A stretch of 64,000 bases of DNA from an uncultured Bifidobacteriaceae bacterium (GCA_964618545.1 CAZUBG010000004.1:73-64072), one strand, 5' to 3'; positions 84 through 15,023 are shown, counted from the first letter of the stretch. Program-made: numbers and translations. The notes: generated by a model not told the origin, from the sequence alone.

Positions 84-3000
84 TTAGTTGTCTATGGGAA
101 TGGTAAAAACTCTGGCATTGGCCAGCGCCGAAGTGATCGCATGGTCGTAACCTCCCGCGCCGCCCGCGCCGGGGAGGATCGTCACTTCCGCCTCGTTGTT
201 TTCCACCGTATTGTCGGCAATAAATGGGATGCCGGAATCTCCGCCCGCGTCAAACAGCGCCGGGTTGGCCGAACACCATGCGACATCCAGATATGCGTAA
301 TTCTGCGGTAGCGCGATGACGGCGGTGTCTTGCAGCCCTTCCAAAAGGTAAACCAGCGCCGTCACGCCAACCATGCTTTGGGGTGGAATTTCATCATCAT
401 TAAGCACGAAGTCACCAAACCATCCTGTTGGAATGATGCCTCCGTCAGTGACGGAACCATCAAAGTAATGCAGGGGCGCAATCGGAGAAGTGGCGGCGCA
501 CAAATTCACGTCAAAATAGGCGTAAGCCCTCAAATAATCCCCGCCAGTGTCTTCAAAGAAATCAGCCGCAAACATTATTGACGAAGCAACCTGAGAAATT
601 GGGGGAGTAGTGAATTGGGCGTAATCACCCGCTTGAACCGACCAGCGCATCGGAACGGCGACCTGGTTTAGAATGAACGGAAGGTTAAGACGGGCATACA
701 GAGTCCGTGCGTCCGCAATGTCAACCCAGCGGTAGGTTTGCGCCACGGTCTGGAAGGTGGAATCGAAACCATAGGCAGCCCAGATAACCGACGCTGGCGT
801 GGTGGTTCCATAATTGTCATATGTAAACACAATTTCCGCAGCCAAGGGAGCGCCATACCCATCCGGCAGTGTCGCCTGCACCGTCATCCCAAGGGATCCC
901 AGGTATGTGCCGACCGGGTCAGCGCCCGTGGTGCCCGCCGCATTTGTGCTGGGTCCATTCCAACAGAAATAAGCCGTGCGAGGCCAGTACGTTTCCGGCC
1001 ATGGGGTGCCACTCCCGCCACCATTGGGCTGCTCCTCGTCGCCATCGCCGGGCGGCGTGGGGATTGCGACCGGGTAAAAAAACGGGATGAAGCTCAAGCC
1101 GGAACCGTCACCAACGCTGGTATCAAACGTGGCGGGGGAACCAATCAGTGGCGGATAAAGAAGTGGGTTACTGGGGTCTGCTGCGGTCCATGGCCGCAGT
1201 GGACAAGCAAGTGCGTTACACGAGAGGATGGTCGGGGTGGTGCCTGACGCCTGTGCCACCGTGACAATGCCGCCGGTGGCATTGACGGTGGCAACCACAA
1301 GGTTCATCCCGATTGGATCGCCAGCTTGATAACTGACACCCGGGTTTACGATGATGATGTTTGCCGGCGCAAAGTTCAGCGTAAACAGCATCGTATTCTC
1401 CGGAGAATCAGGCGGCAGCCACTTGGATGGCGGGGCGGCGTTCAGAAGGCCGGCCAGCGTGTTGTAGTGTTCGGCCTGGCATGGCAGGACATTCTCCGCT
1501 TCAACCGTGACCCCGTCAAAGGCTTCTCCCCCGTATGCGCCGCCAAAGTATGGGCTTCCCGGAAGCAGGCCGCCTGGGAAAGGAGCTCCGGCCAGCACCA
1601 CTTGGTAGTTATACAATCCGGCCGGGCTTCCGATGCTCTGAAACATCCAGTCGGTCAGCGGGCTGTTGCCGGGAAAGACGGAGGTGTTCTTTTCAATCCC
1701 CGCGCTCTCAAACGTCCCCAGGTCGTTCAGCCATGAATTAAACACCGACCACACATCCGGCGTCGTCGAGAACTGTCCCGGTCGGGATATGCCGGTCTCC
1801 GGCACCAGCGCCGGCGTCGCCACGGTGTCCACGCTGATCGGATTCGTTGAGTAAAACGGCACGAGGTTGGACTGCTGAAAAGTGTAGCAGTGGTCGGTGC
1901 GCGGGAAGTTCCACTGCATGAACCTGGTGGACGGGCTGGTCGGCGGGAAAATGCCGAACTCGTATGGCCATTCGTTGCCGGTGCCGCTGGAATTCCAGTA
2001 CCGCGTCTGGTTCAGGTAGATTCCCCTCGTCACAATCAGTGCCAGTCCATTGGCTTGAACTGAGAGAATAAAGACCCGGCCGTTGGTCGCCCCCCCCACG
2101 CCGTTGAATGTCGCGTTCAGCGGCCACGTCTCCTGCCAGGTCAGGATGTGGCCGTGGACGGTGGATTGCAGGTTAAAGTTGCCAGCCGTCACCACCGAGC
2201 CGGTCCCGGCCGCAGCGTTCTGTACGGTGTTCGTTATCAGGGACTCGGCGGTCGCCACACTGGTCATGACAGTCAGCAGCTCGGATGCTTCTGTCATCGT
2301 GCTCCCGGCATTCGTCACCGTCACCGTCGCGCTTCCCGTTTCAGTGGGATTCCCGTCGTCATCGTCACCCCGTTCATTGTAGCTGTAGTTCGTAGTGGCC
2401 GAAGTCGGGGCGATGCACCACATATTAAACCAGAACAACGGCAACACCACACTTGGCGCGATTGCCACCCCTCCAATGCCGGTTCCCGGCGTCTGCGACG
2501 GCCCCACCGCCACGGCCGGCACCGGCGTTGACCCGCCGGTGCAGAACGTCGCGAACGGGCTGCTCAGGTCAATCAATGCCAGCGTCACCGTCGCTTCCGT
2601 CGAATTGTCCCAAAAGGGGGCGTATAGCTCAATATTGGCGACCCCGGAAACCGTGATCGGGCGCTGGCTTATCCCGGACCCGGACAGCATGTTTGACAGG
2701 TTGGCGAACCCGGTGAACGGCAGCACCGCCGAAGTGCCGTTGCCCCGGAGAGCCACCATGACGTTGCCTTTGGAGATCGCCAGGTCGCCGAGCAGATCGC
2801 CCGTCCCAAGCGCCGGGAAGTATCCATATTTCGTCCCGTTTAGCACCGGCAGCGGATTCTCCGCGCTGCCCGGTGTGTACGATGCGTTATTCAACACTGG
2901 CGATGCGTCCCAGAACTGTGTGGCGTTGAATGTCTTGCCAAAATTCGTCGGGCTCACCGCCGCCAGCACGTCTGCGACGATGCCCGGGGCGAACGGTGCG

Positions 3001-3845
3001 GCGGCGCCGCCGGACGTCTCCAAGTGCTGAAGGAATCTTGGATCCCCTGATTCCATCCAATGGAAATAACTGCCGCATCCGCCCCACGTCCCGGATGCCA
3101 GCTTCCGTGCGCAGAACGATGCTCCAGCCCCGACCGTCTGTGTCACGCCGCCGAACGTCGCGCTAATGCTTCCATTCGAGCAGTTGTGCAGCCGCACAAA
3201 GCTGTACTTGTTCCAGGCGGACGACCAGGTGAAATTGCCAGCCACGAACACATCCACCGGCTTGAACAATTGCACATGCTCCGCCGTCGTCTGGTCCTTA
3301 AACGAAACCGCATAACTTGTGCCTCCAATGTTTACCGTCCACACCTGCAGGCTGACATCAAGACAGTTGATCAGCGGGATGGTCGTTTGGATCGTGCCGC
3401 CGCCCGTCGTGTAGATGGTCGCCACTCCATATGCCGTATAATTCGTCGTCGGCAATCCATTCGGATACACCGCCGCCAGCCAGGTGGCCCAGGGCGCATG
3501 GTTAAGCACCGCCACCCCCGTGGTGGACGAGTGCGACGCCACCGTGCAACCGGCCAGCAAACTCGCAAACGGGGCGTCATTGTATTGCCGGCAGAACAGC
3601 AAATAGACCCAAAACGGATTGCTGCCGAAAAAATTGGCGAGCCAGCTCTGGGCGGCCGGATGCAGGTTGGCGGGGGCCGTTAGTGGATTGAAAAAGAAAA
3701 ACGGACGGTCCCAATGGGTGTCCACCCCGGCCAGCACTGCCGAAAACCCGCCCAGCGCCGTCTTCATCTGCGCATCCGCCGCCTGAAAGATCGCATTCCA
3801 CTGCACCGCCGTCAGCGACGCCCCTGGATTGATGTAACTGATCAT
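84..3845 (-). CDS. Giant hypothetical protein (1253 aa), possibly a virion, tail-fibre or receptor-binding type structural protein
   Basis: Uninterrupted 3.76-kb ORF with an ATG at 3843-3845 preceded by GAAGGA. Composition is complex and rich in G/T/S/N/A, with no catalytic motifs I recognise. All overlapping ORFs are short with R/P-rich shadow composition. The function is guessed only from size, composition and context. Confidence 0.75.
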   Translation of the reverse strand: MISYINPGASLTAVQWNAIFQAADAQMKTALGGFSAVLAGVDTHWDRPFFFFNPLTAPANLHPAAQSWLANFFGSNPFWVYLLFCRQYNDAPFASLLAGCTVASHSSTTGVAVLNHAPWATWLAAVYPNGLPTTNYTAYGVATIYTTGGGTIQTTIPLINCLDVSLQVWTVNIGGTSYAVSFKDQTTAEHVQLFKPVDVFVAGNFTWSSAWNKYSFVRLHNCSNGSISATFGGVTQTVGAGASFCARKLASGTWGGCGSYFHWMESGDPRFLQHLETSGGAAAPFAPGIVADVLAAVSPTNFGKTFNATQFWDASPVLNNASYTPGSAENPLPVLNGTKYGYFPALGTGDLLGDLAISKGNVMVALRGNGTSAVLPFTGFANLSNMLSGSGISQRPITVSGVANIELYAPFWDNSTEATVTLALIDLSSPFATFCTGGSTPVPAVAVGPSQTPGTGIGGVAIAPSVVLPLFWFNMWCIAPTSATTNYSYNERGDDDDGNPTETGSATVTVTNAGSTMTEASELLTVMTSVATAESLITNTVQNAAAGTGSVVTAGNFNLQSTVHGHILTWQETWPLNATFNGVGGATNGRVFILSVQANGLALIVTRGIYLNQTRYWNSSGTGNEWPYEFGIFPPTSPSTRFMQWNFPRTDHCYTFQQSNLVPFYSTNPISVDTVATPALVPETGISRPGQFSTTPDVWSVFNSWLNDLGTFESAGIEKNTSVFPGNSPLTDWMFQSIGSPAGLYNYQVVLAGAPFPGGLLPGSPYFGGAYGGEAFDGVTVEAENVLPCQAEHYNTLAGLLNAAPPSKWLPPDSPENTMLFTLNFAPANIIIVNPGVSYQAGDPIGMNLVVATVNATGGIVTVAQASGTTPTILSCNALACPLRPWTAADPSNPLLYPPLIGSPATFDTSVGDGSGLSFIPFFYPVAIPTPPGDGDEEQPNGGGSGTPWPETYWPRTAYFCWNGPSTNAAGTTGADPVGTYLGSLGMTVQATLPDGYGAPLAAEIVFTYDNYGTTTPASVIWAAYGFDSTFQTVAQTYRWVDIADARTLYARLNLPFILNQVAVPMRWSVQAGDYAQFTTPPISQVASSIMFAADFFEDTGGDYLRAYAYFDVNLCAATSPIAPLHYFDGSVTDGGIIPTGWFGDFVLNDDEIPPQSMVGVTALVYLLEGLQDTAVIALPQNYAYLDVAWCSANPALFDAGGDSGIPFIADNTVENNEAEVTILPGAGGAGGYDHAITSALANARVFTIPIDN

Positions 3846-3883
3846 TTATCCTTCGTTTCTTTTTTGTTCGTGTCGGTCTTTTT

Positions 3884-4085
3884 CTTTGTGTTCTCTGCGT
3901 TCTTTGCGGTTAAAACCAGGCCGAGGTCCGGCTTTCGCGGTTAATTTTTTCCATTTCCCCGGCTTTCTTCGTTGCCTTCGTTTGCTTCTGTTAAATTTCC
4001 GCTTTCCGCTTTCCGCTTTTGTCTATGTGTTCTTTGCGTTCTCTGCGGTTAAATTTTCCCCGTTTCCGCTTTCTGCTTTCACCCC
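3884..4085. repeat. Intergenic modular repeat array A
   Basis: R1 GTGTTCTCTGCGTTCTTTGCGGTTAAA at 3888-3914 and a variant at 4027-4053. R2 GGCTTTCTTCGTTGCCTTCGTTTGCTTCTGTTAA at 3961-3994. CCGCTTT heptad runs at 3995-4020 and 4060-4080. A GGCCGAGGTCCGGC hairpin-type module at 3918-3944. Confidence 0.9.
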
Positions 4086-6725
4086 TCACATCCAAACCGC
4101 CCCCGTGGACGTGCTTCCGCCCCCGGCCCCCAACCGCACCTTGATGAGTTGCACCCCCGTTCCCGTGATCGCCTGCAGCGCCACCCCCACGCTCGGCGTG
4201 CCCCCCGCCACCAGGTACGCCCCGTTCGTTGAGAAGTCCGACCCGCCGGTCGAGGACAACCCAATCGCCTGGTTCACCGTCACCGGCCCCATCACCTGCG
4301 CGTAACTGTCCCCCGCCATCTGGAGCGGAAATGTCCCGCCCGTCGGCTCGTTGTGCCGCACCGTCACCCCCAGGAATACATTCGTCCCCGTCGCCGCCAC
4401 CGACGCCGGCGGCGTCGCCACATTCGCGCCCGCCGTGCCAATGATCGGCGATCCCACCGGCAGCGTCGCCGGCAGTCCCGTGGCTCCCGGCGTAAACCAG
4501 GTGTAATGCAGGTTCTCGTCCACCTCGCCGCGCAGCACCTTCTGAAACAGCTTCAGCAAATTCTGATTCTCCAGCGTGCGCAACCCCGCGTTCAACCGCT
4601 TCTGGTCCGCCGTCTCCTGCCGCAACTCCTGTTGCCCGGGAAACAACGAGTTCTGCAGGCTCCGCCGGTCCAGTTCCCGCTCCGGCTCGAACCGGTCCCG
4701 CGCGCGTTCCGCCGTGAAATCCACCACTTCAATGATTCCGTCCGGCCCCACCTGGATCTGCACCCGGTCAATGCACGAACTCGTCCCCGGAGCCAGCGCC
4801 TGCCCGAATTCCTCGATCGGCAGCTTCGGATTCCATTTCAAATTGTAACCCCCTTGCAGATAAAATTGCTGCACCAGCAGTAGCGCCTCCGCCACCGTGG
4901 CCGCCTTCTGATTTGCCGTCAGATTGTCCGCGTACGGGATTTCCGTGAACACTCCGGGATTGTTCGCGTCATTCAAAAACTCCTGCATCAGACCGTTCAC
5001 CGGTTCCACCCGGTTGCGCCCCGGCGTCGCCTGGTCCGCCGTATAGACCGGCTGCCCGCTCGCCGTCACCCACCCCGTCGTCCCCTGCCAAAACGTGTAA
5101 CGCTCCGCCTCGAACACCAGCGCCGCCATCACCGTCGGCGTCTGCAGTTGAAAGGCCGCGTTCAAAAATGTGTAATTGTTGGGATTGTTGGCCGGCGGCG
5201 TGATCAGGATCCCGTTCGGGTCCGGCGCCGCCACAAACACCGGCGTGTCAGCAATCACAAACCGGATGCCCTCCCCGCTGTCGTCAATCTGGAAATTCAC
5301 CGAACTCCAGCCCCGGCTCCCCGCGTTGAAAAATTTCTGGTTGATCCGGTCCGGCTGCGCCAGCCGGAACAAATCCTCCCCCACCTGATAACCCTGCACC
5401 GCCAGCACCCCGTTCCCGTCCACCGGCTGCGTCGGGTCCGCCGTCATCAACCCCGTCGCATAGTCCAGATACACCCGGCACAACAATTGGTCCGCGATCG
5501 GCGCGCTGTCCAGCGGGATCAACTTCCCCTGCGCATTCTGAATGTCCGTGAAATTCGGCTTGAACGCCCGGAACACCAGGCTCGATAGGTACAACGCCGC
5601 CGGCATGTCCATCCGCCACCGGCCGCTGAACTTCCGGTTGTCCGTGAAATTCGCCGCGTCCGCGTTCCCCGACCGCGCCGCGCGCAGCGCAATGTATTGC
5701 CCCACCGTGATCTCCAGCGCCATCGCCTTCGCCGCCCCGTACCCGAACCATTGATCCGTGTCCCCGGTGAAGGCCGTGAACGGTGTCATCACCCCCGTCG
5801 CCGGGTCAATCCCGCTCTCATTCTGGAAGATGTCCTGCACGAACAATTCCACGTCAATAAACTGACTCCACGCCGCCGCCCAATCCGCCTTCATCGGCAA
5901 ATTCAAAATCTGGTACCGGCTCCGATCCCCCAGCACAATGATGTTCGTGGCATTCTCCGTCAGCGTGATCCCCTGCCGCCGCTCATCCGCATTCACCGGA
6001 AACGGCAGCGGCAGCAGCCCGTAACCCTTGCGGTTGAACACCAGCCGGAAATCCCCCGCCCAGATCGGCGCCCCCTCGTCCTGGGCCGGACGCGGATCAT
6101 GACAGAACACCAGCCCCGTTTTTTCACAGACCAGGTTCAAAAAGGCGTCCAGCCGCATCCCGCTCGTCGCATCCATCTCAAAAATCGGCCCGTTCAGCAG
6201 CCCCGCCGGCCACAACCCGTTCCCCGTCAAATCCCATTCCCAGTCCGTGTAAACCGTCGGTGCCTGAAATGCATACTCCAAAATCTGCCATGCCATCAAT
6301 GGACTGTTGGTGTACGTCTTCGTCTGGCTGAACCAATTCTGCGGCAGAATGTGCCAGTAGCGCTTTATCCGCATCCCGTTGATCAGCCGCACATCCGGCA
6401 TGTTGAACGCCCCCAGCACCCAGTCCCAGGTCAGGAAATACCGCAAATCCACAAATTCCAGCGTCCGCAGCATCCCCGAACTCGACTGCACCAGCGTGTC
6501 CGATTTGCACACCCCCGCAAAATAATGCCCCCCGATCTGGATCGTCACCAGCGCCCCCGCCGTCACTGGCACCGTCGTGCCCACATATACCAGCGTCGCC
6601 GTCGCCGGCGACGAGCCCCACGAAAAACTCCCCGCCATGGACTGTGCCGCCAGCGTCCGCGCCGCCTGCGTCGCCCCTCCCCGCGGGGGGGCCCCGCAAT
6701 TAACCGTGATCGGTGCTCCATTCAT
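4086..6725 (-). CDS. Large hypothetical protein (879 aa), possibly a tail or baseplate-type structural protein
   Basis: 2.6-kb ORF with an ATG at 6723-6725. It contains a coiled-coil-like stretch (ERELDRRSLQNSLFPGQQELRQETADQKRLNAGLRTLENQN) followed by a G/T/A-rich C-terminal domain. I recognise no enzymatic motif. The function is inferred from context only. Confidence 0.75.
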   Translation of the reverse strand: MNGAPITVNCGAPPRGGATQAARTLAAQSMAGSFSWGSSPATATLVYVGTTVPVTAGALVTIQIGGHYFAGVCKSDTLVQSSSGMLRTLEFVDLRYFLTWDWVLGAFNMPDVRLINGMRIKRYWHILPQNWFSQTKTYTNSPLMAWQILEYAFQAPTVYTDWEWDLTGNGLWPAGLLNGPIFEMDATSGMRLDAFLNLVCEKTGLVFCHDPRPAQDEGAPIWAGDFRLVFNRKGYGLLPLPFPVNADERRQGITLTENATNIIVLGDRSRYQILNLPMKADWAAAWSQFIDVELFVQDIFQNESGIDPATGVMTPFTAFTGDTDQWFGYGAAKAMALEITVGQYIALRAARSGNADAANFTDNRKFSGRWRMDMPAALYLSSLVFRAFKPNFTDIQNAQGKLIPLDSAPIADQLLCRVYLDYATGLMTADPTQPVDGNGVLAVQGYQVGEDLFRLAQPDRINQKFFNAGSRGWSSVNFQIDDSGEGIRFVIADTPVFVAAPDPNGILITPPANNPNNYTFLNAAFQLQTPTVMAALVFEAERYTFWQGTTGWVTASGQPVYTADQATPGRNRVEPVNGLMQEFLNDANNPGVFTEIPYADNLTANQKAATVAEALLLVQQFYLQGGYNLKWNPKLPIEEFGQALAPGTSSCIDRVQIQVGPDGIIEVVDFTAERARDRFEPERELDRRSLQNSLFPGQQELRQETADQKRLNAGLRTLENQNLLKLFQKVLRGEVDENLHYTWFTPGATGLPATLPVGSPIIGTAGANVATPPASVAATGTNVFLGVTVRHNEPTGGTFPLQMAGDSYAQVMGPVTVNQAIGLSSTGGSDFSTNGAYLVAGGTPSVGVALQAITGTGVQLIKVRLGAGGGSTSTGAVWM

Positions 6726-6843
6726 GTTTCAATCATCCCGGTGGGGCGGCGCTGCGGCGCCGCCCAAATATTAGAACCAGCCGCAGGCTGGTAAAATCCC
6801 CTTTTTTGTTCGCATGTTTCTAGGTTTAATAAATTCCAGGTTT

Positions 6844-6925
6844 CCCGGCTTTCTTCGTTGCCTTCGTTTGCTTCTGTTAACTTTCTGCTTTTGTCTATGC
6901 GTTCTCTGCGTTCTTTGCGGTCAAA
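6844..6925. repeat. Intergenic modular repeat array B
   Basis: R2 at 6847-6880 is identical to the 34-mer at 3961-3994. R1 at 6896-6925 overlaps the 3' end of the 209-aa ORF. A separate perfect 9-bp GC hairpin (GGGCGGCGC TGCG GCGCCGCCC, 6744-6765) lies 18 nt upstream of the 879-aa start codon. Confidence 0.9.
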
Positions 6926-7524
6926 TATCCCTGTTTCTGCTTTAACTCTATGTCCACCACCCCCCAGCATCGCGCGATCGCGTCCAGTATTTCCCGGCTC
7001 TCCGCCGTCAACCCCGCCCGCCGGGCCTCGTCATAAACCCGCCAGAAATCCATCAGTTCCAACTGATGCTCCAATAACCGGTCATCCCCCGGTTGCCGCA
7101 GCAGCGCCACCAATTGATCCAGCAGCGGCATCCCCTCCTCTTTAAAATTATCATACGCCGCCCGCAGCTCCGGCGAATTTCGTAGCTTGCTCAGCGCCGA
7201 CCGTTCCAGCACCTCCACCTGCCCGAGCGTCAGCCCCAGGGCCTCGCCAATCTCCCGCTTCCCCCGGAACTCCCCCGGCTTCGCCCCGATCCCCAGTTTG
7301 TGTGGACAACGGTGGTCATTCTTCTTGTGCAGCCATTGCTTCCGCGCCTGGGCGCAGGCCGGGCAAACCCGCCGGTTCACTCGCCGCCAGACCTCCTTGT
7401 TGCCTTTGCCCTGAGACTGCCCCGTCTGAAATTTCAGTTTTATCCGTTTCTGCACATATTCAAACGGCTGTCCACAGTGGACACACCGCCCGCGCTTCAT
7501 TGCTTCATTTGCCTTTGTTCGCAT
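6895..7524 (-). CDS. Zn-ribbon protein with a sigma-70 region-4-like HTH (putative transcription regulator or late-gene activator)
   Basis: CVHCG...CPAC cysteine pairs lie in the N-terminal 60 aa. REIGEALGLTLGQVEVLERSALSKLR matches the sigma-70 region 4 / LuxR-type HTH pattern, and no region 2 is present. The start is ATG at 7524 or 7500. The last ~12 codons (LTAKNAENA) are encoded by repeat module R1. Confidence 0.65.
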   Translation of the reverse strand: MRTKANEAMKRGRCVHCGQPFEYVQKRIKLKFQTGQSQGKGNKEVWRRVNRRVCPACAQARKQWLHKKNDHRCPHKLGIGAKPGEFRGKREIGEALGLTLGQVEVLERSALSKLRNSPELRAAYDNFKEEGMPLLDQLVALLRQPGDDRLLEHQLELMDFWRVYDEARRAGLTAESREILDAIARCWGVVDIELKQKQGYLTAKNAENA

Positions 7525-7544
7525 ATTTCGCGGTTAAAAATTCC

Positions 7545-7787
7545 AGCCTTTTTCTTTGTGTTCTCTGCTTTCCGCTTTCAGCATTTGGTCTTTGCGTTCT
7601 CTGCGTTCTTTGCGGTTAAATTTCCCGTCTTTTCTTTCGGCCTCTGTGCCCTCTGTGCCTCTGTGGTTAAAAAATTTCAGCTTTCTGCTTTCCCGCTTTC
7701 CGCTTTGATCTATGTGTTCTCTGCGTTCTTTGCGGTTAAATTTTTCCGTTCCCGCTTTTCCGCTTTCCGCTTTCCGCTTTTGTCTTT
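7545..7787. repeat. Intergenic modular repeat array C
   Basis: R1 with three 9-mers at 7588-7620 and R1 at 7714-7740. R5 CCTCTGTGCCCTCTGTGCCTCTGTGGTTAAAAAA at 7641-7674. Heptad (CCGCTTT-type) runs at 7563-7580, 7677-7707 and 7745-7782. Confidence 0.9.
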
Positions 7788-10298
7788 TCACTTTTCCTCC
7801 TCGTGTTCTTTCTCGTATTTCAAAACCCCCTCGATGATGGCGAACAACGGTCCCTGCCGCGGATCCCCGTCCCTAAAAACCATCCCCACGTCCCCGATGC
7901 GCAATTCCGCCACCGGCTTCTTTGCCGCCTCCAGTTCCTCATCACTGATGTCCTGCAGCCCCAGCGGATGCAGGTCCACATAAAACCCCCACGCCGTCTT
8001 GCTCACCATGCTCCCCGGCCGGCCAAACCGCTTCTTCAACCCGATTTGCGACGGACCCGCGATGAAAAACTGATTCTTGCTCAATTGATCCCGCAAATCC
8101 TTGTAGCGCAGTGTCACGCTCAACCCCTGCTTGCGCAGGTAAATCTGAAGCTGGCTGATCGCCCCGTGCGGCTCGATGAACAGCTTGTAACTCGTCCACG
8201 GCCCCTGGTTCGGCTTGCCCGGCGGACAGGCGATTTTCGTCCCCTCCACCCGGAAACAATCACTCGAGATTTCCCCCGCGCTGTACGCCACGATCAGGTC
8301 CTGGATGAACACGTTCACATTCACATCCGTCTGCACGTCCACCGCCGTCGCCATCGCGTGTTCCACCAGAAACTTGCGGTATTCGATCAGTTCTTGGCCG
8401 CCGTGGCTCGCCAGCATCGCCGCCGCCGCCGTGAACGCCGCGTAACACACCGAATGGCTCACGCGCACCCGGTCCTGCACCCGGGCCAGATCCGGATGCC
8501 CCAGCCAGAAATCCACCTGCTTCAACGTGTACGCCACAAACTCCCGCCGCCGCACCAGCAGCTCGCGCCAGATCAAAAAGAAAAATTCATGGTGCGCCTG
8601 CATCCACTCAAAGTGATTCGCCAGCCGCCGCTGCTCGCTGATCAACACCTGCGGATACCGGCTTCGCATCGCCGCGTCGCTCGACGTGCTCTCCCCGCTG
8701 ACAATCGGCATCGTCCGGATCACCCGCTGAATCCCGTCCGGCGTCCACTTCCCGGCGAGTTGGCGGTTGTAGGAATCCCGCAGCAGCGGCTCTTTCTCCG
8801 GCGGAATCTGGTTCTGCCGGAACTCATCCAGCCACAGCGGCAGATTCGAATAATTTTCGAGCTGACACGCAATCCCCACCGCGCTCACATTCTTCGAGAT
8901 CAACCCCATCCCGGAGGGCACCCGGAAACCCGCCAGCGACATCAGCCACCCCACGAACGTGCTCTTCCCGCTCCCCATCTGCCCGCTGATCCACACGCTC
9001 GGAAAATTGTTCTGCTTGGCGAACAACTCCGGCGCCGCCAAATACCCCAGCACCGCCCCCAGACTCAGCCACCCCTCGTACCCCCCCGCCGTGTCAAAAA
9101 ACCGCCGGCTCACTTCCCGGAAAAACCCCCCGATCTGATTTTTGGGATCACCCTCATACAGGCTGCGCGCCATCGGCTCCCAATCCTCCGTGTCAAACTT
9201 CACCTGCTCCATGCACAACCCGCCGCCCTCCGGCGTCGGCGGCTGCATCTTCGGCCGTTGCTGGATGAATTCCAGTTCCCGTCCTCGTCGCGACAACGCG
9301 TAACCCTCCCCCTCATGCCAGAATATTCCGTCCTCATCCGGCAGGATGAAATGCCCGTCCCATTCAATCGCGCATTCATCAAACACCCACAACCCTTTCA
9401 AACACTCCGGCCCCGGCTCAATCTGGCTCGTTTCCGCTTTCCCGCTTTCCAAATTTCTGCTTTCGGCTTTTGCTTTTGCTGTCTTCAACTCGTACCACCC
9501 GCAATATTCAATCAGTTTGATCACCCGGTAGGCCGCTTCCTCCGTCACATCCTTTTGCAGCAATTGCAGCTCCGCATTCCCGGCCCCGCCCTCGCAACCC
9601 CAGGTGAAATTCCCCTTGCTCGCCACCCATTGCCGGAACTTTTCCGACCCCGCGTACATGTCGTTCGGCAGCACGTCCGCCCCGCCGATCTGCTGGCCCT
9701 CGCTCATCTCACCCTTGGTGTTTGTCAGCCGCACCAACCGCGTCACATTCCCGTCCGCCCCGCGCAGCAGATAAAGGCACTCCATCTTGAAATTGCTCAC
9801 CGGTTGCGGACATCCCTGCAAAATGTAATCTGCCAGCCACTTCTTCAGCCGGTGCTTCGTCGCCCCCGCCTCGCGCCGCAAATCCGTCGCCGCCAGCCAC
9901 AGGCTTTTGTTCGTCAGCTTCGTCACTGCCTTGCGCGTGTAGTAACAGCCCGGCAGCGTCATCGTCTTCCCGTTGGCCTTGCGTATCCATTCCTGCCGCG
10001 GCAGGCACCGCTCCAGCGCCGACGCATAACGCAGCGCCGCCATCTTGATGTCCGCCACCAGCGACTCATCCCGGCCCAGCTCCCGCAACTGCTTCAAGTC
10101 CCGGCGCTCCATCTCCCCCGCATTCGGCAGCAACGGCTCCCACAACAGCCGCTCCACCTCGCGCTGGACATAACGCTCCTCCTCGTCCGTGAACAATTCG
10201 AGCTGGCCGGGCTGGGACGGGTCAATCGCCGAGTCCAGGACCGCCTCAAAGGCGCGCCGCACCCAAGCATGTTGCTCCAGCGTGATGGCTGATGTCAT
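7788..10298 (-). CDS. P-loop NTPase, SF3 (D5/P4-type, DUF927-like) replicative helicase candidate
   Basis: 836-aa ORF with an ATG at 10296-10298. Walker A is GQMGSGKST and a Walker B-like motif is LPLWLDEF. Its position next to a primase gene fits the call, though the family name comes from memory of similar phage and island helicases. It contains an in-frame repeat module at 9427-9479. The mirror ORF 7803..10292(+) has R/P/Q/H shadow composition. Confidence 0.7.
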   Translation of the reverse strand: MTSAITLEQHAWVRRAFEAVLDSAIDPSQPGQLELFTDEEERYVQREVERLLWEPLLPNAGEMERRDLKQLRELGRDESLVADIKMAALRYASALERCLPRQEWIRKANGKTMTLPGCYYTRKAVTKLTNKSLWLAATDLRREAGATKHRLKKWLADYILQGCPQPVSNFKMECLYLLRGADGNVTRLVRLTNTKGEMSEGQQIGGADVLPNDMYAGSEKFRQWVASKGNFTWGCEGGAGNAELQLLQKDVTEEAAYRVIKLIEYCGWYELKTAKAKAESRNLESGKAETSQIEPGPECLKGLWVFDECAIEWDGHFILPDEDGIFWHEGEGYALSRRGRELEFIQQRPKMQPPTPEGGGLCMEQVKFDTEDWEPMARSLYEGDPKNQIGGFFREVSRRFFDTAGGYEGWLSLGAVLGYLAAPELFAKQNNFPSVWISGQMGSGKSTFVGWLMSLAGFRVPSGMGLISKNVSAVGIACQLENYSNLPLWLDEFRQNQIPPEKEPLLRDSYNRQLAGKWTPDGIQRVIRTMPIVSGESTSSDAAMRSRYPQVLISEQRRLANHFEWMQAHHEFFFLIWRELLVRRREFVAYTLKQVDFWLGHPDLARVQDRVRVSHSVCYAAFTAAAAMLASHGGQELIEYRKFLVEHAMATAVDVQTDVNVNVFIQDLIVAYSAGEISSDCFRVEGTKIACPPGKPNQGPWTSYKLFIEPHGAISQLQIYLRKQGLSVTLRYKDLRDQLSKNQFFIAGPSQIGLKKRFGRPGSMVSKTAWGFYVDLHPLGLQDISDEELEAAKKPVAELRIGDVGMVFRDGDPRQGPLFAIIEGVLKYEKEHEEEK

Positions 10299-10361
10299 AT
10301 TTTACCGCTCTGCTTTCCCCGGCGGCCGCCCCGCCCGCCCGCCCCGGCGCCTTCGTCCAAC

Positions 10362-10521
10362 TGTAGGCCCGGTCCCCTGACCGGGCGTCTCAATGGTTTG
10401 TAACCGACCAGGTCACGAGACTCTGATATTGCCCTGTCTTTTCTTCTCTGTGCCCTCGGTGCCTCTGTGGTTTAAAAACTCCGGTCTTTTCTTTGTGTTC
10501 TCTGCGTTCTCTGCGGTTAAA
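10362..10521. repeat. Intergenic modular repeat array D
   Basis: Hairpin module R6 TGTAGGCCCGGTCCCCTGACCGGGCGTC at 10362-10389, R5 variant at 10446-10477, and R1 at 10495-10521. Confidence 0.9.
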
Positions 10522-10530
10522 TTTCCCCGT

Positions 10531-11646
10531 TCAGGCCGGTGGCACCCACCATGTCACCGCCTCCGGCACCGGTGTCCCCGGCCACGCCGACACCTTCCCC
10601 CAGTGCTTTTCCAGCCAGGCCTTCACGTCCCGGCCCAGGACACCGGGCCCCAGACGCGAACTCCAATCCATCAGCGTCTCATCCGGCCACAAATGCAACA
10701 CGTCATCCCCGATCCCCGCTTGGCGGGCCAGCAGTTCAAACTGATTCAACTGGTTCCACGCGTAATGCGCCCACAAATCATTGCCGGCAAACACCTCCGT
10801 CCGCACCTTGCGCCCCAGCGCCCGGGCCCGGTCCTCAATGCGCTTCACATTCCCGCCCCGGATGTTCAACGGCTCCATGAACACCGTCACCGGCTCCAGC
10901 GCCGCCACCGCCGCCAGCGTGGACCGCAGGTCGGTCATCGAACAATCCGGATAGGCCGGCGCGACTGCCGCAAACACATGCAATCCCGCCGCCTTGGCCG
11001 CCCGTAGCGTCTCCAGCCGTTGCGACGGGGCCGGCGCCTTCGGCTCATAAATCCGCGCCAGGTCATTGTCCAGCGTTGGCAGCGACATCCCAAACGTCAG
11101 CCGGTTCCCGAACGCCTTCATCAAATCAAAATCCTGGCGTGCCAGCGGCGACCGCGTCAGCATCCGCACATTCAACGACGAATGCTCCAATATCAGTTCC
11201 AGCGCCCGCCGTGTCCCCAGTTCCAGAGTGGCAGAGGCGTCCCGCCTCTGATCCCCCGTTCCCGTTGGACTTTGAGTTCTGAATTTTGAATTCTCACGCC
11301 TCACCACCTGATACGGATCCGTCGTTGTGCAAAACATCACCGCCCGGTTGCCGTCCGCGTTCAGGCTCTGCGGTTTCTCCGCTTCCGCCTTCCTGAGCGA
11401 CGCCAGAAAAACCTTTTCATCAAACGGCCGGGGAAAAACATAATTGCCCCACTCTTCATCCGAATCCTCCACCCCGCGCGGTCGCAACACCGACGCCATC
11501 CGGTTCGTGGACACCTTGGGCACATAACAAAACGTGCAGCCATGCCCGCACCCCACCGCCACATTGCACGACCACACCGAGAGCGACTTGTGCTTGAAAT
11601 GGTTGCGTTCAATCGTCACCGGCTTTTTCCACCATTCTGTAATCAT
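10531..11646 (-). CDS. Radical SAM enzyme, SPL / COG1533 (DNA repair photolyase-like) type
   Basis: The CX3CX2C cluster motif is in VAVGCGHGCTFCYVP, and TTTDPYQ follows as in SplB-like proteins. The ATG at 11644-11646 overlaps the upstream stop (ATGA). There is an in-frame repeat-derived insertion at 11231-11295. Confidence 0.7.
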   Translation of the reverse strand: MITEWWKKPVTIERNHFKHKSLSVWSCNVAVGCGHGCTFCYVPKVSTNRMASVLRPRGVEDSDEEWGNYVFPRPFDEKVFLASLRKAEAEKPQSLNADGNRAVMFCTTTDPYQVVRRENSKFRTQSPTGTGDQRRDASATLELGTRRALELILEHSSLNVRMLTRSPLARQDFDLMKAFGNRLTFGMSLPTLDNDLARIYEPKAPAPSQRLETLRAAKAAGLHVFAAVAPAYPDCSMTDLRSTLAAVAALEPVTVFMEPLNIRGGNVKRIEDRARALGRKVRTEVFAGNDLWAHYAWNQLNQFELLARQAGIGDDVLHLWPDETLMDWSSRLGPGVLGRDVKAWLEKHWGKVSAWPGTPVPEAVTWWVPPA

Positions 11647-12077
11647 AATTTATTTGTTGTTGTTAATTGCGCCCGCAAAATCGCCCCCAAATCCGGCAGC
11701 CCAAATCTTGTCGGCCCGGTGCCCTCACCAGGCGTCCTCGTAGCCGCCGAGGTCACGAATGCCATGCCGAGGTTCGGCCTCTGATTAATTGAATCATCCA
11801 ATTCAACCACGCCGCCCGCCACACCCTGGACTGCCGAACCATCCCCCCTCTCCTTGGGGAGAGGGCCGGGGTGAGGGAGGTCATGTCTCGCCGCAGGCCC
11901 AATCTTCCCGGCCCCCGTTTCCGCTTTCCCGATTTCTGCTTTCTGCTTTTCACACTGCCGGCCCGGTTTCCACCCCGCCGAAACCTTGTTTTCTTCCTCC
12001 TGCAGAATCCGCAGCTTTTCCTTCAACTCGAACACCGGCAACCGCTCCAGATAACGGCGGTACCGCCCCGGCGTCAT
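11643..12077 (-). CDS. Hypothetical ORF composed largely of repeat modules (doubtful CDS)
   Basis: The track ORF is 11643..12206. I trimmed it to the ATG at 12075-12077 (MTPGRYRRYLERLPVFELKEKLRILQEEENK). Downstream of about 11960 the frame runs through heptad, CCCTCTCC-TTGG-GGAGAGGG hairpin, GGCCGAACCTCGGC and R6-like modules. Its stop overlaps the radical SAM start (ATGA). Confidence 0.3.
   Translation of the reverse strand: MTPGRYRRYLERLPVFELKEKLRILQEEENKVSAGWKPGRQCEKQKAEIGKAETGAGKIGPAARHDLPHPGPLPKERGDGSAVQGVAGGVVELDDSINQRPNLGMAFVTSAATRTPGEGTGPTRFGLPDLGAILRAQLTTTNKL
11709..11950. repeat. Modular repeat array E (further R1 copy at 12123-12149)
   Basis: Degenerate R6 at 11709-11737 and a GCCGAGGTTCGGCC hairpin at about 11766-11779. 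A hairpin CCCCTCTCCTTGGGGAGAGGGCCGGGGTGAGGG at 11844-11877. A heptad run at 11915-11950. R1 GTGTTCTCTGCGTTCTTTGCGGTTAAA at 12123-12149. Confidence 0.85.
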
Positions 12078-12144
12078 CGGCTGCGCCAGCTCCACGCGAA
12101 GTAAAATAATTTTTTCATCTTTGTGTTCTCTGCGTTCTTTGCGG

Positions 12145-12504
12145 TTAAATTTCCGCTTCCACGCTTTTTTGAATTTCGCTTTTCGGAAACGCCTCCGTCC
12201 GCTCATATTTTCCCCGGGCCGTCTTTTTCAGCCAGCCCTTGTCCTTTGAAAAGATCCAGATCAAGTGAGCGCAGTACTGGATCTTCCTGCCCAGCGCCGC
12301 CGCCAGCCCCTCGGCCGTGATTGGCTCCGCCATGACCCTCATCGCTTTCAAAACCTGCACATTCACCTCCGGCCCCCTGGGCCCGCTCCCCACTGACCGC
12401 CTCCTGGCCGGCACAACCGGTTCAGGTTGGACTTGGCTTGTTTCAGCTTTCTCGCTGTCGTCCGGCCGGGGTTCGGCCCGATTTCCGCTTTCATCCGCAC
12501 TCAT
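12145..12504 (-). CDS. Small putative winged-helix DNA-binding protein (119 aa)
   Basis: The ATG at 12502-12504 immediately follows the primase stop (TAAATG), which suggests translational coupling. The C-terminal half (ITAEGLAAALGRKIQYCAHLIWIFSKDKGWLKKTARGKYERT) looks wHTH-like. The N-terminal ~30 aa are repeat-encoded, and the stop is the TAA of a TTTAACC R1 module. Confidence 0.5.
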   Translation of the reverse strand: MSADESGNRAEPRPDDSEKAETSQVQPEPVVPARRRSVGSGPRGPEVNVQVLKAMRVMAEPITAEGLAAALGRKIQYCAHLIWIFSKDKGWLKKTARGKYERTEAFPKSEIQKSVEAEI

Positions 12505-14661
12505 TTACATTCCTTTCTCATTTTTGTTGTGTTTGGTTTCCGCCAGCAGTTTCACCAGCGCCCCGTCCCAGTCCGCCTTGCCCTTGGTGTTGCGCCACTC
12601 CACGGGCAGCGGCGCGTACAGCCCGCGCAGATGCCTTTCCTCCTTCAAATATTGGGCCAGGTAACGCATGTAGATCTTCGCGTCAAACCGCCGCGCCAGC
12701 GGCTTGTGGCTGTTATCCTCCTCGTCGAACGACACGATCACCCGCTGGCAGCCGGCCCCGATCAGCCAGTCCAGCAGATCCGCGCGATAATGCTTGTTGC
12801 GCACAAACGAAATCCCCGGCAGCGCGCACGACCCCACCGCCTCCCGCTTGTCCCCGTAATTCAAAAACGCCCCCGCCCCCGCCTCCTGCCAGAGCGCCGC
12901 CGCCTTGTATTCCCCCTCGCAAACCACCACCGTGAAAAACTTCTCCTCACAATGAACGCTCTCCCCCGTTCCCGATTCAAGAACCTGTCGCGGGATATAA
13001 ACCCGGCCGCTGCCCGCCGCCGTATCCGCCGCCGCCCCCCCCTTGTGTGGCCGTAACTTCACCAGCCGGCCCAGTTCGTCGAAGTACGGAATCAATACCG
13101 GCTGGCTCCAGCCCCAGTGCCACTTGTCATCCGGGTTGCGGCGCTCATTGTCCTCCTTGCGCCCCACCAGCCCCTTGCCGCAGAACTGCGGGTTGGGACG
13201 CCGATCCAGCCGCCGCTTCCGGTCCGATGGCAGCCAGAGCCCGCTGGCCGCCAGGTCATGCCAGTCAAACTCCCCCGTCATCGCCTGCAAAATCTCTTCG
13301 TTGCTCCGGGGATTCGCCCGGAAACCCAGCAGCGCGCACGTCTCCGGCGTCAACCCCCGCTTCTCCAGCAGCGACACCGGCACCCATTCCAACTTGCGCA
13401 CCACCCCCGCCGTCAGCGCCTCCGGCAACGGCGCGCCCCCCGGCAGCACCGGTCGCATCTCCGACGACGTCGGCGTCAGCTTGTCATAAAACCACCGCAA
13501 CGCCGCCATCCCCGGTGCCAGCGCGGCCGCCGGCGTCCCGTCGCCCGGCTTCCCCTTTTCCTCGTTTCCGCTGTTGCCAGGCCGAGGTTCGGCCCGGTTT
13601 CCGCATTCCGCTTTTTCGCCCGCGCCTTGAAACAACGCCACCACATTTTGCGCCACCTCCTTGATTGTACCGTCCGAAAGCGTCACGCCGCCATCCCCAC
13701 CGGCCACGGTGGAAAGGGCGGCGACTGACTGCGCTGTTTGCAACCCGTCAGCGGGATTGTTATGAACAGCCTGCGCAGCCAATGGCCCACTCGTCGGGAG
13801 CTCCGCAGACCCGGGAACAGCACTGCCCGCATTCGTTTCCCCGACATTAATTTCCGGTGCCGGCGCCGCGCCGCCATCACTCGGCGCGGACGCCGGCACG
13901 GGAACACCGCCCGACGGCGGTAAATTCTCAAACGAAATCTCCTCCGCCACCTCCGGCGGCATCACCGGATTCGGCCGCCCCCCTGTAGGCCCGGTGCCCC
14001 CACCGGGCGTCCCTTTCCTGAACGCCACCGGATTAAACCGGGCATCCACCCGGATCTCCCGCGGCTCGGCTCCCTTGGCGGGACCGACCAGTCCGCGCCG
14101 CTCCAACTCATCCATGATGCGCGCCGCCCGGGCATAACCCAGCTTCAGGCGCCGCTGCAGCAGCGAGACGCTGGCCCTTTGCTCCGCCCGGATGACATCC
14201 AGGCAATTCTGGATCAACTCCTCATCCTCGTGCTCCTCGGCCGGGGGTGCCGGTGGGGTTTTAATTTGCGGTGGATTTTGATCTGTGGAATTTGAAGTTT
14301 TCCTGGACGGCTCCTGCCACAGCCCGGCCATCTTCAGCAAATGTTCATAAGCCGGCGCCGGCCCCCATTCCGGCTTCTGCTCACTCAACCCCAGCTTCAA
14401 GTTGATATACCCCGTCTCCGCGACCACGCGGCCGCCCGTGGAACAATCCGGGTTATGACATTTGAAGAATTCGGCTCCGTCTTTGGTGTAGACCCCGGCC
14501 TTGTCTTTTTTACCGCAGAAGGGACATTGGGGAAACGACTTCCATTTATGATCAAACGGCGGCGCATCCCCCAGCTTGGAAATAACTCCCTTCAAGCCGC
14601 CCACGGCCGCGCGCACCTGCGAAAATTCCGGAAAATTTGGAGCAGAATCAGGCACACCCAC
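12505..14661 (-). CDS. Composite DNA primase: CHC2-type Zn finger + FtsK-gamma-like wHTH + Toprim domain
   Basis: The Zn finger is CPFCGKKDKAGVYTKDGAEFFKCHNPDC. The FtsK-gamma signature is RASVSLLQRRLKLGYARAARIMDELERRGLVGPAKGAEPREI. Toprim-like motifs are VVVCEGEYKAAAL and VIVSFDEEDN. The start is a GTG at 14659-14661 or 14653-14655 after AAGGGG. Three in-frame repeat modules lie between the domains. Confidence 0.75.
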   Translation of the reverse strand: MGVPDSAPNFPEFSQVRAAVGGLKGVISKLGDAPPFDHKWKSFPQCPFCGKKDKAGVYTKDGAEFFKCHNPDCSTGGRVVAETGYINLKLGLSEQKPEWGPAPAYEHLLKMAGLWQEPSRKTSNSTDQNPPQIKTPPAPPAEEHEDEELIQNCLDVIRAEQRASVSLLQRRLKLGYARAARIMDELERRGLVGPAKGAEPREIRVDARFNPVAFRKGTPGGGTGPTGGRPNPVMPPEVAEEISFENLPPSGGVPVPASAPSDGGAAPAPEINVGETNAGSAVPGSAELPTSGPLAAQAVHNNPADGLQTAQSVAALSTVAGGDGGVTLSDGTIKEVAQNVVALFQGAGEKAECGNRAEPRPGNSGNEEKGKPGDGTPAAALAPGMAALRWFYDKLTPTSSEMRPVLPGGAPLPEALTAGVVRKLEWVPVSLLEKRGLTPETCALLGFRANPRSNEEILQAMTGEFDWHDLAASGLWLPSDRKRRLDRRPNPQFCGKGLVGRKEDNERRNPDDKWHWGWSQPVLIPYFDELGRLVKLRPHKGGAAADTAAGSGRVYIPRQVLESGTGESVHCEEKFFTVVVCEGEYKAAALWQEAGAGAFLNYGDKREAVGSCALPGISFVRNKHYRADLLDWLIGAGCQRVIVSFDEEDNSHKPLARRFDAKIYMRYLAQYLKEERHLRGLYAPLPVEWRNTKGKADWDGALVKLLAETKHNKNEKGM

Positions 14662-14823
14662 CCCCTTGAAAAGAAACCGGAAAAAAAGTTAAAAAAAGAA
14701 GAAATCCAGCAGCTTGGGCATACTCTGGGCATACCCCCATCAAAACCCCCAATGAAATCAAGCGCCAGAGAAATACGTATGCGTACCATGCGAGAGATTC
14801 GTCGGCTGCCTTTGCCTTTTCCC

Positions 14824-15023
14824 TCTCTGCGATCTTTGCGATCTTTGCGGTTAAACATTCCCTGTGTTTCTTGTTTCCGCTTTGGTTTTCCCATCCGTGT
14901 TAATCCGCGAAATCCGTGGTCAAAAACGCCCCGTCTTTGCGCTCTGCGGTTAAATTTCCCCGCATCAGATCATCCCCGGTGAAGGCTGTCCGAATTGTAG
15001 GCCGGGTCCCCTGACCCGGCGTC
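14824..15023. repeat. Modular repeat array F at the right edge of the phage-like block
   Basis: R1 variant with three 9-mers TCTCTGCGATCTTTGCGATCTTTGCGGTTAAA at 14824-14855. Module CCGTGTTAATCCGCGAAATCCGTGGTCAAAAA at 14895-14925. R1 at 14933-14954. Hairpin module R6 at 14996-15023. Confidence 0.9.

Follow-up and report, generated by a model that had tools for sequence, protein, structure and literature searches.

The 64,000-nucleotide stretch analyzed here, which we refer to as the window, derives from an uncultured Bifidobacteriaceae bacterium (GCA_964618545.1, CAZUBG010000004.1:73-64072) and carries a phage-like block of seven to eight minus-strand genes between positions 84 and 14661. An earlier note on this DNA had described six gaps of this block (within 3884-15023) as built almost entirely from short repeat modules, termed R1, R2, R5, heptad runs and a hairpin module, here called H, and had listed element-specific promoters or operators and iteron-like sites among their possible roles. 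We followed up this description computationally. The genes of the block and the putative junction upstream of gH are as follows.

12505-14661, minus strand: gH, 718 aa, zinc-finger N-terminus (weak phage primase PHROG match)
stop codon at 12145-12147, minus strand: gG, 119 aa
minus strand: a doubtful open reading frame (ORF) of 187 aa
minus strand: gE, radical SAM
7788-10298, minus strand: gD, 836 aa, P-loop helicase-like, distantly resembling the C-terminal part of phage primase-helicases
minus strand: gC, 209 aa, zinc ribbon and a weak Sigma70_r4 match
minus strand: gB, 879 aa
minus strand: gA, 1253 aa
about 14720-14800: att-like junction upstream of gH, a degenerate tRNA-3'-end-like stretch followed by TTGATTTCATTGGGGG, TATGCCCAGAGTATGCCC and TCTTCTTTTTTTAAC

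The gH protein contains an FtsK_gamma domain (residues 145-205, E 9e-23) and has no FtsK motor domain; its Toprim-like C-terminus (CEGEYKA...FDEED) is a by-eye reading only. The resulting order of zinc finger, FtsK gamma winged helix, long low-complexity linker and Toprim-like C-terminus is unusual. Sequence searches of the PDB with gA, gB and gD gave no usable relatives, and a protein search of IMG/VR with gD and gB gave none. The segment around 14720-14800 looks like an att-type junction. Its three motifs are conserved with relatives that have the same junction, namely L142 (with a tRNA gene) and L141 and L136 (with a tRNA 3'-end stretch), while ARAGORN found no intact tRNA in the window. 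Because the tRNA-3'-end-like junction is common to these relatives, the block is best read as an integrated primase-helicase element.

On the gene strand the gaps of this element resolve into units, each of which opens with TTAAC. Their layout is given below.

3846-4085, minus strand: gap 1 (gB stop to gA start), four TTAAC-headed units
4029-4053 plus 3997-4019, minus strand: gap 1 unit 1, R1 and heptads
3961-3994, minus strand: gap 1 unit 2, R2
3917-3944, minus strand: gap 1 unit 3, short, with a small hairpin (GCCGGACCTCGGC)
3890-3914, minus strand: gap 1 unit 4, R1, continuing into the gA start
6776-6792, minus strand: terminator-like hairpin, ACCAGCCTGCGGCTGGT then a T-rich tail, upstream of gB, not a repeat module
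6829-6960, minus strand: gap 2, its modules only: an R1 variant whose head reads TTTGAC (6901-6925), then R2 (6847-6880)
7525-7787, minus strand: gap 3 (gD stop to gC start), starting with a heptad run (7745-7787), then R1 (7716-7740), heptads, R5 (7642-7673), R1 (7596-7620) and heptads, and ending in a short TTAACCGCGAAAT head directly before the gC ATG
9420-9480, minus strand: heptad-type (GGAAAGC-like) sequence encoding a hypervariable linker (...ESGKAETS...) inside gD
10299-10530, minus strand: gap 4 (gE stop to gD start), R1 (10497-10521), R5 (10446-10477), H (10362-10389) and a GC-rich stretch
11647-12149, minus strand: gap 5 region, R1 (12125-12149), a heptad run (11913-11950), a whalefall-1-like hairpin (11844-11882), a GCCGAGGTTCGGC hairpin and an H-like module (about 11708-11738); there may be a small real ORF in between
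14824-15023, minus strand: array beyond the putative att remnant, an R1-like copy (14831-14855), a CACGGATGG-type unit (about 14880-14903), a degenerate R1 copy (14933-14953) and H (14996-15023)

Scanning for R1 (GTTCTCTGCGTTCTTTGCGGTTAAA) revealed eight matches at up to 3 mismatches (3890, 4029, 6901, 7596, 7716, 10497, 12125 and 14831), all on the plus strand, and 0 matches in 100 shuffles. A ninth copy had been counted in the earlier note; this one (14933-14953) is degenerate, keeping about 1.5 nonamers and TGCGGTTAAA, and falls outside the 3-mismatch cut, and the R1 starts given before had been placed 2-8 nt early, since the preceding nonamer was included. The identical R2 34-mers at 3961 and 6847 were found as described, as was R5 (7642, and 10446 with 2 mismatches). 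The hairpin module H is likewise present at 10362 and 14996, and we located a third copy at 13984, within the 718-aa ORF of gH, and a degenerate one near 11709. The claim of a single orientation for all copies is borne out: GCGGTTAA occurs 10 times on the plus strand and TTCCGCTTT 14 times, neither occurs on the minus strand, and all of these words lie within 3.9-15 kb of the 64-kb window. No copies of R1, R2, R5 or the hairpin module were found elsewhere in the 64 kb. That the gaps consist almost wholly of modules is overstated for 11709-12149, with its possible small ORF and other hairpins, and for gap 2, which includes a normal terminator-like hairpin. The exclusion of CRISPR stands, as the units abut each other or other repeat modules with no unique spacers, and Pfam, NCBIfam and PADLOC revealed no real cas gene in the block, the sole match being a weak Csf1-like one to the zinc ribbon of gC (E 5.5e-4). 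Two multi-unit orders are each seen in two gaps, R1-then-R2 in gaps 1 and 2 and R1-then-R5 in gaps 3 and 4, and for this reason part of the array growth can be attributed to multi-unit blocks copied between gaps. Gaps 1 and 3 are nearly free of T on the gene strand (7.5-9% T); gap 1 contains 113 A, 44 C, 65 G and 18 T.

We then compared 120 non-redundant copies of the unit. Conservation sets in abruptly at an (A/T)TTTAAC head, runs into the third nonamer and then fades; upstream of the head nothing is conserved, positions -3 to -1 being frequently T[G/A]A. The nonamers have the form C-R-C-A-R-A-G-R-R, occur as two to four tandem copies per unit and differ only by purine-to-purine changes at fixed positions. 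As read from their sequence, R1 and R5 are variants of one head-plus-nonamer grammar, and R2 is probably a further variant of it. Heptad runs and small GC hairpins are additional module types.

The position of the units relative to genes was evaluated in low-GC loci and homology-checked contigs only, because long antisense shadow ORFs make ORF-based context statistics unreliable in GC-rich loci. The window itself holds such a case, an 829-aa shadow ORF (7803-10292, plus strand) opposite gD (7788-10298, minus strand). Long false ORFs on the non-coding strand arise from the strand bias, and gene calling here and in related contigs can be misled by them. Most informative cases from low-GC loci, in which ORFs can be trusted, show a co-directional gene ending 1-40 nt upstream of the head. 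Chromosomal units follow a stop far more commonly than they precede a start, with a start codon at a distance of 30 nt or less in only 2 of 52 low-GC cases. The stop codon of gG (12145-12147) is the TAA of an R1 head, so that the protein ends (...VEAEI and stop) on heptad-type sequence plus this head (12145-12149). Heads follow the stops of gE, gB and gD at 7-10, about 30 and about 46 nt, respectively. An R1 copy supplies the last 10 codons of gC (LTAKNAENA and stop; 6895-6925), and the TAG in its third nonamer closes the reading frame. Both gC and gE follow a TTAAC head and have no Shine-Dalgarno (SD) sequence. A forward orientation of the units just before start codons is the pattern in compact viral contigs and in relatives of the element, but not in chromosomes or in the viral contigs L118 and L134.

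The distribution of R1 beyond the element was determined by an exact scan of species-representative genomes and IMG/VR for its 24-base core, TTCTYTGCGTTCTYTGCGGTTAAA. This core is present in more than 116 stretches of species-representative genomes and in 19 viral stretches of IMG/VR. Among the matches listed, about 40 carriers are Cyanobacteria (many of them Microcoleus), about 25 Verrucomicrobiota and about 18 Bacteroidota, the latter including isolates of Flavobacterium, Mucilaginibacter and Mangrovibacterium. Proteobacteria, Acidobacteriota, Desulfobacterota, Planctomycetota, Chloroflexota and others also appear there, and Bacillota, Actinomycetota and Archaea do not. Within about 4 kb of the R1-core loci no homologues of the window proteins were detected, except for a weak FtsK-gamma-type match to gH in L063 (E 9e-5). 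An all-against-all comparison of neighboring ORFs within 2.5 kb of the copies revealed no recurring family except orthologous loci of related strains. R1 is followed by unrelated genes, among them those for an ATPase, an amidohydrolase-like protein, glycoside hydrolases, helicases, a nonribosomal peptide synthetase, a protease and a phage portal protein. Judged by where it occurs, the R1 core is not element-specific. This cross-phylum identity is our most surprising result, since MITEs (miniature inverted-repeat transposable elements) have been reported to be about 97% genus-specific (PMC11602168). Exact viral scans gave 0 matches for R2 and the hairpin module and 1 match for the R5 core, and blastn of gap 3 and of a synthetic R1 palindrome against phage and plasmid collections returned only weak matches of 30-45 nt, mostly in cyanobacterial plasmids.

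Promoter and terminator features were searched for directly. Sigma-70-like sites, defined as -35 and -10 hexamers 16-18 nt apart (other promoter types lie outside this test), were found three times in 12 kb, where 2.6 are expected, and none is located at a module. On the gene strand R1, R2 and R5 have no stem plus U-tract, and the earlier statement that they are not classical terminators is correct. Terminator-like sites on the gene strand of the gaps are the hairpin at 6776-6792, the only good one, and weak 5-bp stems at 6836-6848 and 3920-3932. The arrays have no significant predicted RNA structure on either strand. The strands of R1, R2 and R5 are T-free and unable to fold, and all that R1 forms on the opposite, non-gene strand is a weak 5-bp stem (-4.3 kcal/mol). 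Folding does occur in the separate GC hairpin modules.

These results make it very improbable that the modules are element-specific promoters, operators or iterons, as had been considered in the earlier note, or stoperator-like sites, read by the 209-aa sigma-r4-like or the 119-aa winged helix-turn-helix protein. The idea was attractive because the modules are oriented, intergenic and placed before most genes, and gC has its weak Sigma70_r4 match. However, the same 24-mer stands beside unrelated genes in many phyla that lack these proteins, the modules have neither a promoter-like hexamer pair nor a conserved element upstream of the TTAAC head, relatives retain the sigma-r4-like gene without arrays, and in other contigs the modules are antisense to genes. 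Formally, the modules also resemble the stoperators and start-associated sequences known from mycobacteriophages of clusters A and K. These short sequences are asymmetric, recur in one orientation in many small gaps between phage genes and overlap stop and start codons. Unlike R1, stoperators are phage-cluster-specific and bound by a phage repressor. Several further candidates were dropped after inspection by eye, as too weak or contradicted by polarity or distribution: a DnaA box (TTAACCACA versus TTATCCACA), rrn boxA (GTTCTTTG), the XerD arm of dif (GTTAAAT), the Haemophilus uptake signal (TGCGGT plus an AT-rich tail), the T3 promoter (AATTAACC), sigma-54 and extracytoplasmic function (ECF) sigma factor promoters, the 960 region of 16S rRNA and a -1 frameshift site.

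The repeat family is apparently undescribed, in line with the earlier note, which knew of no functional description. A literature search by sequence found no paper carrying the R1 sequence, and an Rfam scan of the region found no family at the modules. The only match there was a sub-threshold one to whalefall-1 at 11844-11882 (CCCCCTCTCCTTGGGGAGAGG...GGGTGAGGGAGG; 23.5 bits versus a gathering score of 37), a further GC hairpin type, known from many environmental genomes. A second Rfam scan, of nine R1-bearing loci, returned the unrelated families Flavo-1 and fluoride riboswitch, neither of which overlaps R1, and meaningless miRNA-like hairpins. The Flavo-1 matches lie in two Flavobacterium loci (L037, 4763-4844; L059, 7213-7290). 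The one in L037 scores 36.4 bits, under the gathering score of 42, and its proximity to an R1 copy (about 70 nt) is probably coincidental.

How the arrays arose became clearer from compact viral contigs and relatives of the element. One unit makes up the whole stop-to-ATG gap in three gaps of L119, and the same is true for three gaps of L136, whose gD is 71% identical. L141 (66% identical, same gene order) follows the same grammar with another nonamer, TAA-ACC-(CACGGAATA)x3, and L138 (58% identical) has no module. From the end of the unit to the ATG, the distance in such compact genomes is 4-40 nt. Relatives carry zero to three single modules, and their gaps usually measure 3-60 nt compared with 230-260 nt in the window element. 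Given these few single modules in far shorter gaps, the arrays represent a lineage-specific expansion. Mosaics of a similar kind were seen elsewhere: in L079, L102 and L011 (one Proteobacteria metagenome-assembled genome) and in L118, nonamer units are interleaved with REP-like (repetitive extragenic palindromic) hairpins such as GTAGCCCGGATAAGCGAAGCGCCATCCGGG, and a single unit is interrupted by a small hairpin nested within it (TTAACCGCAG / CCCCGAAAGTCTTCGGGG / TGCAGAAC). This interleaving indicates that window-like mosaic arrays exist in other phyla.

Evidence of insertion was obtained for the hairpin module. At 13963-14034 (minus strand) gH contains an in-frame insertion that carries H (13984-14011) and is flanked by a 9-bp direct repeat, CACCGGATT, at 13963 and 14026. 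The two repeats are 63 nt apart, a segment made of a 54-nt insert and one repeat copy. The gH orthologue of L136 has a single AATCCGGTG and lacks the 63-nt segment. In-frame insertions of palindromic elements in Rickettsia are similar. By this comparison, insertion is demonstrated for the hairpin module only; R1, R2 and R5 may have inserted at TTAA.

Outside the window R1 also exists in palindromic form, with two arms opposing each other in many genomes. Two-arm palindromes (TTAACC-nonamers...nonamers'-GGTTAA) with stems of 25-35 bp, variable centers, unrelated flanks and TTAA at both ends were found three times in L126 and also in L038, L096, L042 and L115, and arms in inverted orientation can enclose one or two genes in viral contigs. 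Could the units then be non-autonomous, MITE-like elements mobilized in trans by a TTAA-inserting transposase, the window arrays having formed by repeated insertion into the TTAA ends of older copies or by decay to single arms? The palindromes, the bracketing of whole genes, the sharp head boundary with every array unit opening at TTAA, and the insertion with direct-repeat duplication seen for the hairpin module of the same element all argue in this direction. The palindromic versions, and only these, share with MITEs the terminal inverted arms, a length of 90-190 nt, the unrelated flanks, the TTAA at both ends and the presence in cells and viruses. The window itself, in contrast, has no inverted arm (TTAACC occurs 0 times on its plus strand versus 10 for GGTTAA), and its copies are single direct arms that are themselves tandem repeats. 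No transposase was found inside arm pairs, no transposase or integrase is linked to R1 near the copies, and neither a partner transposase nor an empty site or target duplication has come to light for these units. The head of the relative L141 reads TAAACC and not TTAACC, the cross-phylum spread does not fit the genus specificity of MITEs reported above (PMC11602168), and a uniform, skew-tied polarity is not expected of a palindromic target. We therefore regard a MITE-like origin as unlikely.

In two viral contigs, L124 and L130, the downstream ORF contains an inverted nonamer arm within its 5' end, and this arm encodes the hydrophobic core of a signal peptide (LCVLCVLCG and LFALFALFAV). With the inverted arm in this position, the start codon lies in the loop of a long 5' hairpin.

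Another resemblance is that to integron attC sites. The (A)TTTAAC head fits the inverse core RYYYAAC and its complement GTTAAAT fits GTTRRRY, and attC sites too stand right after ORFs, co-oriented along an array and in many phyla. Unlike attC, the window units lack a complementary second half and are unable to fold. Pairing in the palindromic versions is almost perfect, without any obvious extrahelical bases, and the block has no integrase.

The uniform orientation of the modules turned out to be connected to strand composition. The block between 4000 and 14500 is extremely strand-asymmetric: GC skew on the plus strand lies at -0.2 to -0.37, and on the gene strand of gB to gH the third codon positions contain 47-62% G versus 16-23% C. 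Only gA, directly downstream (84-3845 region), has no such bias (37% G, 34% C) and is probably of different origin. The purine-rich strand of the modules is the G-rich strand of the block, and relatives show the same excess of G on the sense strand (0.15-0.3). With the modules masked, solo viral modules have their purine strand on the locally G-rich strand in 42 of 48 cases. Counted by contig, polarity agrees with skew in 12 of 15, and in all 10 contigs with at least two modules; the link is confined to strongly skewed contigs. Gene direction agrees less well with module polarity (37 same versus 14 opposite). In L118, terminase, portal and capsid genes lie on the plus strand, the sense strand is C-rich and the modules are in pyrimidine orientation, and in L134 the tape-measure gene is on the minus strand and the purine strand of the modules on the plus strand. 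In both contigs the modules are antisense to confirmed genes yet follow the skew. Polarity thus tracks the locally G-rich strand and not gene direction, and the co-direction with genes noted earlier is true of the window but not a general rule.

We also flipped the gaps in silico. Predicted pairing of the gap RNA rose from 0.38-0.39 to 0.63-0.67 in gaps 1 and 3, and pairing to the flanking coding RNA from 0.12-0.18 to 0.45-0.60. Over the window and L118 together, pairing increased from about 0.38-0.45 to 0.57-0.67 in 5 of 6 gaps, whereas the partly GC-rich gap 4 changed little (0.58 to 0.61). The minimum free energy dropped in all 6 gaps, by 19-60 kcal/mol (19-55 in the window gaps). L118 follows the same trend, though its polarity and skew are both reversed.

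A polarity that tracks the G-rich strand instead of gene direction could also point to polar DNA signals for replication or translocation, comparable to Chi, KOPS/SRS, TraB clt or single-strand initiation-like sites, with gH as a possible reader. The FtsK_gamma domain, zinc finger and by-eye Toprim-like C-terminus of gH and the helicase-like gD would suit such a role, and the units are G/A-rich like known targets of gamma domains (GGGNAGGG and GAGAAGGG). However, the motifs measure 25-60 nt and occur solely in gaps and a few protein linkers instead of being spread through coding DNA, and no exact KOPS or SRS match was found. Moreover, R1 occurs in genomes with no gH or gD homologue nearby, close relatives that share the replication genes carry few units or none, and chromosomes show no relation to skew. 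We consider this explanation improbable.

Alternatively, the RNA of the nonamers might bind a conserved single-strand RNA-binding factor (S1 or Csp-like) and so control SD-independent initiation or re-initiation at the downstream gene. The distance of 4-40 nt between unit and ATG in compact genomes, the SD-less starts of gC and gE behind a TTAAC head, and the restriction of nonamer variation to purine-to-purine changes at fixed positions are consistent with this. So is the phylogenetic range, as only diderm phyla, many of which rarely use SD sequences, and no Bacillota or Actinomycetota are among the matches listed. The same role has been proposed for a published analogue, the TAACTGA repeats (PMC4679880). 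On the other hand, transcripts of L118 and L134 carry the complementary pyrimidine-rich strand, chromosomal units follow stops and are hardly ever found close to a start codon, and relatives do without arrays of three to four units per gap. Such a factor seems to us a somewhat unlikely explanation.

The closest precedents are other intergenic repeats. TAACTGA heptamers occur as direct repeats in Beggiatoaceae, Cyanobacteria and Bacteroidetes (MacGregor, 2015, PMC4679880), a phylum spread similar to that of R1 but narrower. These and the cyanobacterial STRR (short tandemly repeated repetitive) sequences are, like the window modules, short (7-9 nt) tandem direct repeats in intergenic DNA that carry stop codons, are often oriented toward and near SD-less starts and precede genes with no common function. 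Like R1 they are patchy in Cyanobacteria, Bacteroidetes and some Proteobacteria, with no known transfer mechanism or function. With two to four nonamers per unit, mostly intergenic and next to functionally unrelated genes, R1 falls within the range of 6-9-nt tandem repeats that characterizes this class. Unlike them, R1 has a distinct unrepeated TTTAAC head, a T-free strand asymmetry and frequently a pair of inverted arms delimited by TTAA; viral contigs are rich in it, its polarity tracks strand skew and its chromosomal copies stand after stops and not before starts. The BIMEs (bacterial interspersed mosaic elements) and REP sequences of enterobacteria resemble the window arrays as extragenic, non-autonomous mosaics of a few motif types in recurring order, often just after stops, and the interleaving of nonamer units with REP-like GC hairpins in other genomes adds to this likeness. 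The differences are a non-palindromic core in R1, R2 and R5, one orientation per array versus alternating BIME units, no RAYT (REP-associated tyrosine transposase) gene seen, and the species specificity of REP versus the cross-phylum occurrence of R1.

As our best explanation, held tentatively and with somewhat less than even confidence, we propose that the modules belong to a proliferating intergenic repeat class of the BIME, STRR or TAACTGA type that persists only in the polarity that keeps intercistronic RNA unpaired. The gaps would then be a mosaic of non-coding repeat modules and not regulatory sites made for the element. Each unit begins with the (A/T)TTTAAC head, whose TAA often ends the upstream gene as its stop codon or follows that stop closely, and head plus two to four nonamers yield a T-free, purine-rich strand. 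In compact relatives and viral contigs single units form the whole intercistronic spacer (stop, unit, ATG), whereas in the window element they have multiplied until the gaps were several times longer than in relatives, partly by copying of multi-unit blocks between gaps and partly, perhaps, by insertion. Polarity would be set by strand composition, in that only copies with the purine strand on the G-rich strand persist, a polarity that would also keep the gap RNA from pairing with neighboring coding RNA. The arrays would add no function beyond that of a passive, structure-free spacer carrying stop codons.

Several observations weigh against this proposal. An exact 24-mer across phyla of 27-64% GC is hard to reconcile with neutral DNA and suggests recent transfer or some constraint. 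The taxon counts represent a sample, namely the matches listed. No empty site or presence-absence polymorphism was found for R1, R2 or R5 among related loci. Only two contigs, L118 and L134, separate gene direction from skew, and in bacterial chromosomes polarity is unrelated to local skew (68 versus 52). Finally, mononucleotide-shuffled gaps behave like native ones in the flip test, so that the effect is one of composition and the test largely restates it.

The letter-perfect 24-mer across 27-64% GC and the strand-locked polarity would both be explained if the TTAAC-headed modules were undescribed, constrained gene-boundary cassettes that are exchanged among phages and bacteria of at least 10 diderm phyla and read by a conserved host factor. 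Such a factor might recognize the RNA, with a role in SD-independent re-initiation or the processing of mRNA, or else single-stranded DNA at replication forks. We regard this possibility as doubtful.

For the window, these data remove the idea that the element uses a private regulatory code. For annotation, the modules matter as they yield spurious ORFs (...LCVLCG and stop), lengthen real ones, as in the tail of gC, and insert in frame, as in gH, and annotation pipelines need to recognize them. If the family is real and constrained, it would constitute a widespread, unannotated gene-boundary feature of environmental bacteria (Cyanobacteria, Verrucomicrobiota, Bacteroidota, Acidobacteriota and others) and their phages. 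It could then mark a post-transcriptional or replication-linked mechanism in lineages that rarely use Shine-Dalgarno sequences, and could serve to trace DNA exchange across phyla.

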